Origin: Promethearchaeota archaeon
Lineage (GTDB): Archaea > Asgardarchaeota > Lokiarchaeia > Sigyniarchaeales > SOKP01
Reading direction: 5' to 3'
DNA: 64,000 bases
NCBI GenBank assembly: GCA_048937405.1
Contig: JBHLNF010000009.1
Span: 96,001 to 160,000, forward strand
A program made the position numbers and the translations under genes. How positions within the stretch are numbered: position 1 is the first letter of the stretch; the number at the start of each line of letters is the position of its first letter. The notes beneath the pieces were generated by a model, which searched no databases, was not told the DNA's origin, and was given only the letters and a program-made list of their open reading frames with translations. Positions 44,417 to 49,542 of this stretch are shown piece by piece.

Positions 44417-46480
44417 TTATTTTTCAAAATATTTTTCTATTTTAATAATCCAAGGATGATTATTAATATTTTCTACTTCATTATTTATATCCTCATCACT
44501 TCGTAAGTTTTTAATAAAAAGATCTAATCTTTCAAATGATAACTGCTTTAGATTTTTAAGATATAAGGATACTCTATTAATTAATTCTGTATTTAAACCA
44601 TCTGATTTAAGCTTACGGGAAAATATAATCTCGCTTATTAAAAGATTTATTAATTTGTTAAAATATTCAATAATATTTTTGTTTTCATCTCTTATAATCT
44701 CATTTTCATTTATATGGATCATTATATCTGCCAATTTATTAAAAACATCATATTCCTCAAGGAATTTGAGTGGTAATCTATTAATATTATTAACAGAAAT
44801 TTCTGTGGTTAAATGTGCTCCCAAATTAAATACAGAATCATAATAAAAGTTCATTACCTTTGAATTCATTAATAAGAGAAGATATTTAATACTAAATTTA
44901 TCATCTAAATTCTCCTTTGGGATTATAGCGATACAAGTACTTAAAGGATAATATTTCATATTGTCATAAGCTACAGTGAGATTTGAACTAATTGTTTGCA
45001 TGATTAATTTTTCAGGTTTTTGAAATATCGATTCATCCCGAGCCCTATGGAGGGCTTTAGGGTCATAATTCACATACAAACCATTAAAATCTATAAAATA
45101 ACGTCCAATATTTTTACCCCTAAGAGTTTTTTTAAACTTTTCACTAACTTTATGATCTTTTAAGAATTTTGTGTCGTTTCCAGTAGCTATACACGTTTTT
45201 GCTTCAAAATAGTCATTTAAAATAAAATCTTTATTATTTCTAATATAATTTATGATTTCAAGTTCATCATGTAAAAGTTCCAAATTAAAGTTATAATTTT
45301 CTTGCTTTAAGTAGATGTTTTGGGGTAATTCCTTGATTAAAATATCTTTAGATGTTATTATGTTTTGTTTATTAAAATTAGTTTTTATTTTGATTTTATG
45401 AGTTTTTATTGGAAGGGTATTTTTTATAAGAATAATAACGGCTTCGGCTGTTATAGAAGGAAAAGCTCCAGCTCCAACATCAATGATTTCTTCAATAGTA
45501 GTATGCTCAAGAAGAAATTTCCTTAGTAAATCATAATTATTAGATCTAATTATATTTTTATGAATAACAAAACAATTTATTGAAAATAAGTTGCATATAT
45601 TAATAGAGCGCTCAATAAAGATTCCAAATGTATTCATTAGACCTTTAGTGGTTTTATATCTTTCCTGGAATATTGCCTTCTCGAGAGGAGAGAGGTTTTT
45701 ATTTGAAATATACGGGGGATTTTCAATTATTATATCAAAACCTCCTCTCTCCATTATTTTTGGGAATTCATAGAACCAATGAAAAGGTTTTAATGTATAT
45801 AGCATTGTCTTTTCCTCTCTTTCTGTTAGATCCAATTTTTTTAAATCTTTATGGGTATGAAATAAATACTTAATTTCATCATAAAAACAGGCATTCAAAT
45901 CTTTATGATTTAAAGAAGTTATTTCTGATTTGTTAATGTAGCCAATTACGGCATTACCTAATTTTAAATTAAAATGTATATTTTGCTTATCATTATCCTT
46001 TTCATTATGAACCAAGTGTTTTATCGTAGCCAATAATCTTTTTTTTGTATTTTCAATTGCATCTTTTTCAATATCTACACCAAATAAATTACGCGAAATA
46101 ATTTCTTTTTTTATCTTTAAATTTGTCCAATTTATTATTCCTAGGCTTCTCAAATTAACCATATATTTTTCTATGACTTTTAAAGCAGCAATTAAAAGGT
46201 GTCCACTTCCAACAGCAGGATCTAATACTTTCAAATCCCTTAATACTTCAAAAACATATTCAAATTGTTCTCTATCAATTTTATCAATAGTATAAACTAA
46301 GGAACCTCTATTATCATTCTCTTTTCGAATGTATTTTTCAAATAATTCATCTATAGATATTTTATTTGTTGAAAATCTCTTATTAATTTTAGTCACAAGA
46401 AATTTATCTATTGTAATTTGAGCAATGTAATTAGTTAAATTTTCAGGTGTGTATACTCTTCCTATCTTCTGTGAATTCAT
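44417..46480 (-). CDS. Orphan N6-adenine DNA methyltransferase (Eco57I/TaqI-like with C-terminal specificity domain)
   Basis: VYTPE, VLDPAVGSG, FGVDI, GFDIIIENPPY, LRGKNIGRY, YLLLLMNSK; no nuclease domain. Confidence 0.88.
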   Translation of the reverse strand: MNSQKIGRVYTPENLTNYIAQITIDKFLVTKINKRFSTNKISIDELFEKYIRKENDNRGSLVYTIDKIDREQFEYVFEVLRDLKVLDPAVGSGHLLIAALKVIEKYMVNLRSLGIINWTNLKIKKEIISRNLFGVDIEKDAIENTKKRLLATIKHLVHNEKDNDKQNIHFNLKLGNAVIGYINKSEITSLNHKDLNACFYDEIKYLFHTHKDLKKLDLTEREEKTMLYTLKPFHWFYEFPKIMERGGFDIIIENPPYISNKNLSPLEKAIFQERYKTTKGLMNTFGIFIERSINICNLFSINCFVIHKNIIRSNNYDLLRKFLLEHTTIEEIIDVGAGAFPSITAEAVIILIKNTLPIKTHKIKIKTNFNKQNIITSKDILIKELPQNIYLKQENYNFNLELLHDELEIINYIRNNKDFILNDYFEAKTCIATGNDTKFLKDHKVSEKFKKTLRGKNIGRYFIDFNGLYVNYDPKALHRARDESIFQKPEKLIMQTISSNLTVAYDNMKYYPLSTCIAIIPKENLDDKFSIKYLLLLMNSKVMNFYYDSVFNLGAHLTTEISVNNINRLPLKFLEEYDVFNKLADIMIHINENEIIRDENKNIIEYFNKLINLLISEIIFSRKLKSDGLNTELINRVSLYLKNLKQLSFERLDLFIKNLRSDEDINNEVENINNHPWIIKIEKYFEK

Positions 46481-46853: not shown

Positions 46854-47129
46854 TTATATTATTAACGTAATTACTAACGGAAAAACTATACTGATCAATA
46901 ATATAATCCAAAACCAAAATGTCCCAAACATTTTAGTTTGTTTTTTATAATTATAATATTCCTCTTTAAAGCGTATTCCAACATCATATATTTCCTCTAA
47001 TTTTGCTTGAAAAAAATTCGCTATTAGAATTAAAGGAAAAATAAGAAATCCATCAATATTTATTCCTCTTAAACCAAAACCTAGCGATATGATGATTATT
47101 CCAAAATATATTGGATGCCTACAGAATGA
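46854..47129 (-). pseudogene. 3' half of the IS-interrupted PEMT/ICMT-family methyltransferase gene
   Basis: Frame SFCRHPIYFG...QAKLEE...FKEEYYNYKKQTKMFG...* joins in frame to ...LTNGIY at 48580. Confidence 0.92.
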
Positions 47130-47330
47130 GTGAACTACACACAGCCGAAAGGCTGTCGCTTCCTACGAGTGCGCAACCGCTTCTACTACGGGTTGGTCTG
47201 TATGTCGTAGAAAACCATTCCATCGTGTTAGGAATGATTCCTCGTTCACGGAGGATTCATGCGATAAGAAATCGAATTTATGTTTCTCTGATAAAAACCG
47301 GATCATGATATTAATTGCTGAGTTGAGATC
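47130..47330 (-). ncRNA. Predicted right-end/omega RNA scaffold of TnpB (5' boundary approximate)
   Basis: GC-enriched region overlapping the tnpB 3' end with ACAGCC-TTTC-GGCTGT hairpin; inferred from family knowledge. Confidence 0.55.
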
Positions 47331-48461
47331 TCGGTCAATACGATTTCCACAATCACAAATAATAAATCTCTCAAAAATTACCCTATTTTTGAGCTTTCCA
47401 CATTTGCAGCAGGCTTTTGTAGTCTTGAATTCGTCAATTCTTATTACTTTTTTACCCATTTTTTCTGCTTTGTAGGTTAAGAATTCGACAAATCGAGACA
47501 AATAGCCTGTGTTGTGAACCGAATGGTTGAGTGTGTGATTTAACCTATTCTTTTTAGCATTACCCGTTCCTTTCTTCTTTTGAGCCATCTGTTTTACTTT
47601 TAAATCTCCAACAATAATCGTGTTCGCTTTGGTATTAGTTACAATTTGGTTTGAGAGCCAATGCTGGAAATCTTTCAGTTGATAAGCGCATTTTTTAATC
47701 ATCCGAAGCAGTTTTGAATGATACCAATGCCATTTATTACTGTATCTCTTACAATGATCTCGTTTTGAGTGGACTTCTTCTATTTTTTTTTTCCAATAGA
47801 GGTCTGCTCTTCTGTGAGTGAATTGTACTGAGTTTCCAGAAAGGTTTATCCCTACAGTTTGATTTATTCCTAAATCAATTGCTTGATAAGAGCGATTATC
47901 ATAATATTCAGGGACGTTGAGATCGTATGTGAGGGAAATATACCATCTCTCATCAGACTGAAAAAGTTCTATTTGCTTAATAGTCCCTTGAGGAATGAGA
48001 TGAGAGGGAACTTCAAATTCAAGTATGATATTCGAAGGATGTTTATGAGAGAAGATGATTGAACTCTCTTGTAATTTAAAACCAGATTGATTATAACAAA
48101 GGGTGGTGAAATACTTCTTCCCTTTAAATCGGGGGGATCTTGCATCTTTATCTCCCTTTTTCCATAACACAAAGAAGGATTTATAGTTTGCATCGAGTTT
48201 TTTCAGTACTGTCTGGAGAACTTTTGAATATACCCATTTATATTCTGGATATTTCTCTTTTAATTCCGGTAATGCTCTTGATTGGATAAGATAATTAAGA
48301 TAGCGACGTTTTTCTCGTGGAAGATCCTTATTTTTGTACCAATTTTCCATTCGTTCAGCTAACGCAAAATTATATAAGAGGCGACATTTGTCTGATAAGA
48401 TCCAAAGAAGGAGTTCTTGCTTTTCAGAAGGGAATATCCTAATTCTTTGCGTTAGCTTCAT
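47163..48461 (-). CDS. tnpB: TnpB RNA-guided endonuclease
   Basis: MKLTQRIRIFP (likely start 48461), CRLLYNFAL, PRFK, AIDLG, IVGDL, IDEF, CCKC..CDC, DRDLNSAINI. Confidence 0.93.
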   Translation of the reverse strand: MKLTQRIRIFPSEKQELLLWILSDKCRLLYNFALAERMENWYKNKDLPREKRRYLNYLIQSRALPELKEKYPEYKWVYSKVLQTVLKKLDANYKSFFVLWKKGDKDARSPRFKGKKYFTTLCYNQSGFKLQESSIIFSHKHPSNIILEFEVPSHLIPQGTIKQIELFQSDERWYISLTYDLNVPEYYDNRSYQAIDLGINQTVGINLSGNSVQFTHRRADLYWKKKIEEVHSKRDHCKRYSNKWHWYHSKLLRMIKKCAYQLKDFQHWLSNQIVTNTKANTIIVGDLKVKQMAQKKKGTGNAKKNRLNHTLNHSVHNTGYLSRFVEFLTYKAEKMGKKVIRIDEFKTTKACCKCGKLKNRVIFERFIICDCGNRIDRDLNSAINIMIRFLSEKHKFDFLSHESSVNEESFLTRWNGFLRHTDQPVVEAVAHS

Positions 48462-48579
48462 TTCTATAATGAGAGTACACCGCAAATTAAAAAAGAGGAG
48501 TGGATAAAGATTTAGTGATTTTTTCTTCATGCTCAATTCATCATCTCCCTAAAAGGAGGTGTATTCTTGAGCTTTTGTA

Positions 48580-48954
48580 ATAAATTCCATTTGTTAATAA
48601 TTTGCTAACAGTATCTTTGGCTCCAACCACTCTACGCATTAAAATAGTCCTTAATAATATTAATATTCCTAAAATCATTAATATTAACCCTAGAATATCA
48701 AACCATCTTACATTAAAAGGATCTTTAAAAATTGAAGGTTTTTGAATTATTTCCTCTTCAGAAGGAATTATCATTGGCGCATAGCAAAAGAAATTAAAAA
48801 GAATGACTGAAATAATGTTAATAGTGGTGTTTTCTAATATTTCCGTATATTTATCACGATTTTTAAGAAAATAAGCAAATATCATTATAAGAACAAATAA
48901 ACTTCCTATTAGGCTTAATCTAAATATCCATAATATCGACATTTTGTTCACCAA
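48580..48954 (-). pseudogene. 5' half of the IS-interrupted PEMT/ICMT-family methyltransferase gene
   Basis: TM segments then KLLTNGIY; the last 12 aa of the track ORF are IS-derived. Confidence 0.9.
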
Positions 48955-48975: not shown

Positions 48976-49542
48976 TTATTCTTTTATTATTTTGAAAGGT
49001 AAATATCTTCCTACTCTATTTTTGTAGTTTTTATAATCATCGCCAAATCTTTGAAGTAGAAATTTTTCCTCATCGATGGCTTTTGAATTAAAAGTAATTA
49101 TATTAAAAATAGCGATTAATAAGACAATTATAGTTGGAATTATTAGAAAAGAACCGAAAACAAGTAAAAATACCCCAAAAACGATAGGGTTTCTCATAAT
49201 TCTATAAATTCCTGTAGTAATAAGCTCAGTTTCGTCTATAGGGAGTTCAATCCTAAAGTTAATCCCAAGTGCTACAATTCCCAATATTTCCAATAAAAAT
49301 CCAAATGAGATAAGAATCATCCCAGTTATAATAATCATGTCATTCGATAAGAAATTTAAATGCCAGAAAGTCTCAATTAAATTATTGAAAAATATATATA
49401 AGATAATCAGAACTAACCATAAGAATATCGATACCGAACTAAACTGTGTCAATATAGCAGATCCCTCATGAGTACCATGAGGATTACTACCGCTTTTTTT
49501 TACTACTATAAGAGGCCAAATAAAGCCAATAATAAATAACAA
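48976..49542 (-). CDS. Isoprenylcysteine carboxyl methyltransferase/PEMT-family membrane protein (start uncertain)
   Basis: LITTGIYRIMRNPI, DEEKFLLQRFGDDYKNYK..VGRY. Confidence 0.88.
   Translation of the reverse strand: MLFIIGFIWPLIVVKKSGSNPHGTHEGSAILTQFSSVSIFLWLVLIILYIFFNNLIETFWHLNFLSNDMIIITGMILISFGFLLEILGIVALGINFRIELPIDETELITTGIYRIMRNPIVFGVFLLVFGSFLIIPTIIVLLIAIFNIITFNSKAIDEEKFLLQRFGDDYKNYKNRVGRYLPFKIIKE

Follow-up and report, generated by a model that had tools for sequence, protein, structure and literature searches.

In the tnpB-only IS200/IS605 element ISGst2, the nuclease GstTnpB2 cleaves the empty donor joint (Meers et al., 10.1101/2023.03.14.532601). Related systems provide detail on how such elements define their ends and guides. 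In IS608, a 4-nt guide at the foot of each hairpin pairs with the cleavage motif (PMC5934647), and in ISDra2 a terminal pseudoknot stands just before a 16-nt guide (PMC10097598). Furthermore, some TnpB proteins have a rearranged active site, of which RIIr-5 is the largest type (PMC10691335). The archaeal TvTnpB, which has this rearranged layout, is active, and residue E467 of Fanzor2 has been shown to be catalytic (PMC10530073). Assignment as a pro-Fanzor requires both a DPG motif and an IS607 context (PMC10711439). Our literature search found no characterised Asgard TnpB.

The locus described here lies in a 64,000-nt stretch of DNA (hereafter the window; C27:96001-160000) from the genome (G000; 4.47 Mb, 29 contigs) of a Promethearchaeota (Loki) archaeon, in which a PEMT/ICMT-family gene is interrupted by a tnpB element (Table 1). 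Very probably, a single account embraces its ends, its target, its insertion in trans and the omegaRNA-guided cutting of the empty allele, namely that of a non-autonomous IS200/IS605 element.

Table 1. Features of the tnpB element and its surroundings (positions in the window)
Feature	Position	Strand	Remarks
tnpB-only IS200/IS605 element, 1,450 nt	47130..48579	-	ends from siblings and orthologues
Target motif and predicted TAM, TTTAT, outside the element	48580..48584	-	siblings, empty alleles and L039
Left-end hairpin	48531..48572	-	outer stem GCTCAA/TTGAGC; inner stem 48561-48542, TTTA loop
Left DNA guide G_L, AATA	48562..48565	-	predicted pairing with TTAT for TnpA cleavage
tnpB, 432 aa from ATG 48461	47163..48461	-	455-457 aa with a disordered upstream extension
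Right end	47130..47162	-	G_R GAAG 47162-47159, hairpin 47158-47140, terminal TTCAC
Predicted omegaRNA scaffold, about 126 nt	47130..47255	-	overlaps the 3' end of tnpB
Predicted 16-nt RNA guide, UCAUUCUGUAGGCAUC	47114..47129	-	host-derived; from right end, pseudoknot and ISDra2
Host gene, 5' half, 121 codons	48580..48942	-	PEMT/ICMT-family membrane methyltransferase-like
Host gene, 3' half, 91 codons and stop	46854..47129	-	orthologue alignment

The interrupted gene and the ends of the element

Excision of the element yields the joined sequence GIYSFCRHPIYFG, which encodes a 212-aa protein that aligns without gaps, at 68-76% identity, to ten 212-aa PEMT-family orthologues. PF04191 is present in the orthologues, one of which sits in the same gene order as in the window. 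The initial annotation had proposed that this removal restores the reading frame, and it was correct in this as well as in its junction sequences, coordinates and left-end hairpin. It placed the start of the host ORF at the in-frame TTG 48954, and we move this to ATG 48942, as used by the orthologues. The 5' half now runs for 12 codons inside the element before reaching a stop, giving 133 aa.

Empty alleles, which the initial annotation had proposed to seek in reads or related MAGs, were recovered at the DNA level for 12 orthologues. All 12 are uninterrupted and carry a Tyr codon ending in TAT, and in ten of them TTTAT is followed by TCW at the junction position. No empty allele of the same species was found, the nearest orthologues being 72-76% identical. 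Target duplication is absent at the junction. Cuts at 48578/47129 and 48579/47130 leave identical DNA (TAT), and cuts at 48580/47131 and 48581/47132 leave TAC and the same peptide. Thus, four cuts, and not the two implied by a claim of one alternative junction, give one peptide, and the frame alone is insufficient to fix the ends. Contigs from two runs of one study span both junctions with zero differences, the right junction is also spanned in contigs of a second study, and contigs of other copies diverge at 47129/47130. A joint that skips the element was absent from four public DNA contig sets, which cannot show that no such joint exists.

The ends are fixed by about ten sibling copies in the same genome, among them three more long copies, at 92, 90 and 78% identity, as well as six internally deleted copies of 580-591 nt. 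Subterminal hairpins are present at both ends and terminal inverted repeats are absent; the left hairpin (folding z = -2.5) is conserved among siblings. Alignment of these copies, a check that had been proposed earlier, gave concordant ends. TTTAT precedes eight of 11 left ends, compared with a background frequency of 0.6%, whereas TTTTT precedes two and one is degenerate, and the first base inside the left end is C or T. All 11 right ends read GTTCAC (nine) or GTTCAT (two) and diverge thereafter, with T in eight, A in two and G in one as the following base. The sibling ends resolve the 1-nt ambiguity, upholding the earlier cut, and, together with the orthologues, support the right end TTCAC chosen there. 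Given the two copies behind TTTTT, the motif may be less strict than TTTAT; at these copies the empty site in relatives is too diverged for the original target to be read. The insertion site of a close relative, L039, is empty in the window's own genome, where TTTAT is followed directly by the right flank of L039. Elsewhere in this genome, TTTAT plus the guide of the window copy has no match with three or fewer mismatches.

The absence of stops from both halves of the host gene had been taken as a sign of recent insertion. This argument is weak, given that stop-free halves are expected in 35% of cases at 4% divergence, and the genome has no near-identical copy, the closest being 91.8% identical. 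The dN/dS of the disrupted gene is not raised: it stands at 0.19-0.28, and orthologue pairs of similar divergence give 0.16-0.20, a comparison with little power because the orthologues are distant. Relative-rate tests gave a mixed outcome, and 10 of 94 otherwise invariant residues have been lost.

Several neighbouring observations deserve mention. At 48976-49542 (minus strand), relatives L104 and L106 have four tandem PEMT-family paralogues, and this genome has only one intact gene in addition to the disrupted one. A 687-aa Eco57I/N6-methylase-like gene at 44417-46480 (minus strand) is syntenic in L104. The six miniature copies (G000 C7:3511, C7:803802, C7:866567, C19:68473, C28:286650 and C26:203432) are alike in make-up, are 79-84% mutually identical, retain both ends and the omegaRNA scaffold, and form a PATE-like family. 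At G000 C27:213431 a solo left end stands behind TTTAT and is followed by neither a tnpB nor a right end. A second family (G000 C24:531, C28:32266, C7:340529, C21:21812 and C25:177135) has a similar left hairpin, the target TTTAC and a guide that is mostly AAAG or AAGG; three of its copies encode a TnpB of about 420 aa in which, too, DEAYTS precedes the zinc finger, here a reduced one. The insertion site of L040:2372-3820 is empty at G000 C27:74040, where it reads TTTAC and carries a seed mismatch, and therefore this site would be immune to the L040 guide.

The nuclease and its predicted omegaRNA

The protein has a WED/REC/RuvC/zinc-finger architecture (PF12323, PF01385 and PF07282) with a C4 zinc finger, scores 176 bits against a cut-off of 100 with model NF040570, and matches the fold of ISDra2 TnpB (8h1j, TMq 0.62). 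Its catalytic triad, in 455-aa numbering, is D219/E367/D401, and G308 occupies the position normally held by Glu. Specifically, RuvC-II reads IIVGDL, Gly standing in for Glu, and the zinc finger is immediately preceded by an invariant Glu. Among 120 homologues, D219 and E367 are conserved in every one, G308 and D401 in 119 each, and RuvC-I is DLG in 117. In alignment, E367 falls on E467 of mimivirus Fanzor2 (ApmFz2), and the best PDB match of the RuvC region is also Fanzor2. By residue layout, we provisionally assign the protein to the rearranged type RIIr-5, or TnpB2. Judged by the same residues it is Fanzor-like in its active site, yet it is no pro-Fanzor because it has DLG and IS605 ends. 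Collateral activity is reportedly missing from rearranged-site enzymes.

Nineteen aligned right-end regions share a fold with conserved stems, and RNAalifold by itself paired GUGAAC (47249-47244) with the terminal GUUCAC (47135-47130) as a pseudoknot that includes two pairs with changes on both sides. In the full structure, whose stems and pseudoknot covary, 94% of cells are paired, a value that none of 500 shuffles equalled, although the relatedness of the sequences inflates this result. Folding of the single sequence was not significant (z = -0.8), and thus the alignment alone is informative. Because the pseudoknot ends at GUUCAC, and the terminal pseudoknot of ISDra2 directly precedes its guide, the scaffold should extend from about 47255 to 47130 and the guide should begin at 47129. 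Comparison and published mechanism lend strong support to the earlier predictions of TTTAT as the TAM, of this guide start and of targeting to the empty allele. The six miniature copies are 95% identical to the window copy in the 5' scaffold and 67-79% identical in the tnpB remnant. This greater conservation of the scaffold suggests that miniature copies kept their omegaRNAs for use by TnpB in trans.

Mobilisation, persistence and alternative explanations

The bases AATA before the left hairpin and GAAG before the right are as expected for TTAT and TCAC, respectively. In IS608, base four of the guide is the partner of the final base of the motif. We found these two bases to be complementary in 25 of 30 left ends, drawn from relatives as well as from this genome, with all four pair types represented, in a set that was hand-picked and related, and that includes a few mis-parsed ends. 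Two relatives (L050 and L052) have a Y1 tnpA gene directly upstream of a related tnpB and a right end as in the window element, and the TnpBs of such tnpA-linked relatives are 48% and about 55% identical to the window protein. The nearest of them use TTTAA targets, and so the insertion motif is the sole basis for the predicted TAM preference of TnpB itself. Two congeners that carry close copies encode a Y1 TnpA. However, no TnpA was found in the 29 contigs of the window's own genome with PF01797, NF033573, tblastn or a custom HMM. The initial annotation held that TnpA must act in trans, which is right in form, but no such enzyme was found in the assembly, and for this reason the element is probably stranded at present. 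In another relative, the left hairpin of a tnpA element with the target TTTAA (L073:1943) is closely similar, which makes this a candidate mobiliser type, and a second left end with TTTAT/AAAA lies nearby (L073:2949).

The anatomy of the element, its ends and target motif, the lack of duplication, the intact tnpB, the empty alleles, the conserved triad and the covariation of the predicted RNA structure are observed. We envisage that the element, as a single strand, was placed 3' of TTTAT by a Y1 TnpA of outside origin with the help of the AATA DNA guide, and that this insertion interrupted the host gene. An omegaRNA would then arise when tnpB is transcribed together with the right end, its guide being formed by the first ~16 host bases, and TnpB, using its relocated catalytic Glu, would cut only TTTAT followed by the guide sequence, which is the empty allele. 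Repair from a filled copy would then restore the element, and with no TnpA found in the assembly this copy is probably unable to jump at present. Insertion in trans, omegaRNA production, empty-allele cleavage and repair are proposed here by analogy with the known mechanism, as shown for ISGst2.

It is rather unlikely that the same element is a stranded relic with real ends whose TnpB or omegaRNA is no longer expressed or active. Such a fate would fit with the failure to find a mobiliser in its own genome, siblings that are only 90-92% identical, a mismatch at the foot of the right hairpin (a private change of the window copy at 47157) and the stops carried by close relatives L039 and L041. However, all four long copies in the genome keep open frames, and the tnpB copies have dN/dS values of 0.12-0.31. 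The window copy has 15 synonymous and 14 non-synonymous private changes, compared with a neutral ratio of 1:3.6 (p = 3e-4), a pattern that we read as purifying selection, although some of these changes may predate the insertion.

Far less probable is mobilisation by an Asgard Cas1, as in aCas1-TnpB transposons. The host is an Asgard archaeon and the junction reads GTTCACTCA, a motif found downstream of aCas1-linked TnpBs (PMC10691335), but TCA follows TTCAC in only two of 11 copies and is here a host Ser codon, so the match to Asgard aCas1-TnpB loci is a coincidence. Moreover, no Cas1 was found in this genome, flanking repeats and duplication are absent, and relatives are linked to Y1 tnpA. 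We likewise consider it most improbable that a serine recombinase moved an IS607-type or pro-Fanzor element. The relocated Glu, the Fanzor2 match and a broken serine-recombinase gene elsewhere in the genome might be cited in its favour. Against it stand DLG in place of DPG in RuvC-I, three IS605 traits (ends that form hairpins, a target of 5 nt and a right-flanking base that varies), Y1 tnpA rather than a serine recombinase as the partner in this clade, and a score of 60 bits with the IS607_TnpB model, whose cut-off is 350. In an IS607-like element of this genome (L001; G000 C10:104920-108156), a serine-recombinase gene interrupted by stops lies upstream of a 396-aa TnpB-like ORF. Finally, it is scarcely credible that the element is an IStron that splices out like an intron and leaves a working host gene, even though it lies in sense in an ORF with open halves and a dN/dS that is not raised, given that Rfam gave no match at threshold, that the 5' end has no group I intron, that the left end and the start of tnpB are a mere 118 nt apart, that none of the nine other copies tested splits a long ORF, and, as a weak point, that the host has lost the invariant residues noted above.

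If a non-autonomous IS200/IS605 element is the correct reading, it seems appropriate to question how the family persists. One sibling (C25:54032; G000 C25:52583-54032) lies upstream of a long polymerase-like gene, at a site that in a sister species is occupied by L038. These two are sisters in the tree (99%) and 94% identical, compared with a median of 85.5% for the two genomes, which places them in the top ~3% of windows, and dS between them is 0.12 in tnpB and 0.42 in the neighbouring gene. The flanks are near-identical for ~70 nt on each side before identity falls, and the region is mosaic; tnpB remains under purifying selection. We tentatively suggest, while thinking it doubtful, that with no resident transposase the family is maintained in these Asgard archaea through RNA-guided homing into the same site, even across species. 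TnpB would cut any empty alleles that it encounters when DNA is exchanged, and the element would be copied into the same site. This is one case, and ordinary recombination could be an alternative source of the shared site. If homing is true, the pair would offer evidence from nature of TnpB-driven spread of elements from one archaeal species to another in the absence of TnpA. L038-L040 come from MAG H3M.118, which NCBI labels Candidatus Odinarchaeota and which we place in the host's own genus (G067 = G101).

Relation to known systems

The biology of this locus repeats a published mechanism that has already been described. Its value is practical: a compact 432-aa Asgard TnpB with a rearranged site, whose predicted TAM, scaffold and guide are defined well enough for direct testing.

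With Fanzor2 and pro-Fanzor IS607 TnpBs the window protein shares the alternative Glu, E367 being aligned to E467 of ApmFz2 (PMC10711439). It differs in having DLG instead of DPG and IS605 instead of IS607 ends, and lies outside the lineage proposed as the Fanzor ancestor (PMC10711439). The predicted pairing of guides and cleavage sites at both ends resembles IS608 and ISDra2 (PMC5934647, PMC10097598), both of which, unlike the window element, encode TnpA. ISDra2 is further similar in omegaRNA size, terminal pseudoknot and protein fold, whereas its TnpB keeps the canonical Glu, E278, and shares about 21% identity with the window protein. RIIr-5 or TnpB2 proteins such as Thermoplasma volcanium TvTnpB have Gly at the RuvC-II Glu (PMC10691335, PMC10530073), and TvTnpB also shares the alternative Glu just before the zinc finger, the IS605 context and an archaeal host, but its TAM is TGAC versus the predicted TTTAT. 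The window element differs from ISGst2 in its Asgard host, its relocated catalytic Glu and the failure to find tnpA in the genome. By its features, it resembles ISGst2 in the predicted TAM TTTAT, terminal TTCAC, hairpin ends with DNA guides, absence of duplication and PATE-like derivatives, and would further resemble it in mobilisation in trans and cleavage of the empty donor joint, as demonstrated in ISGst2.
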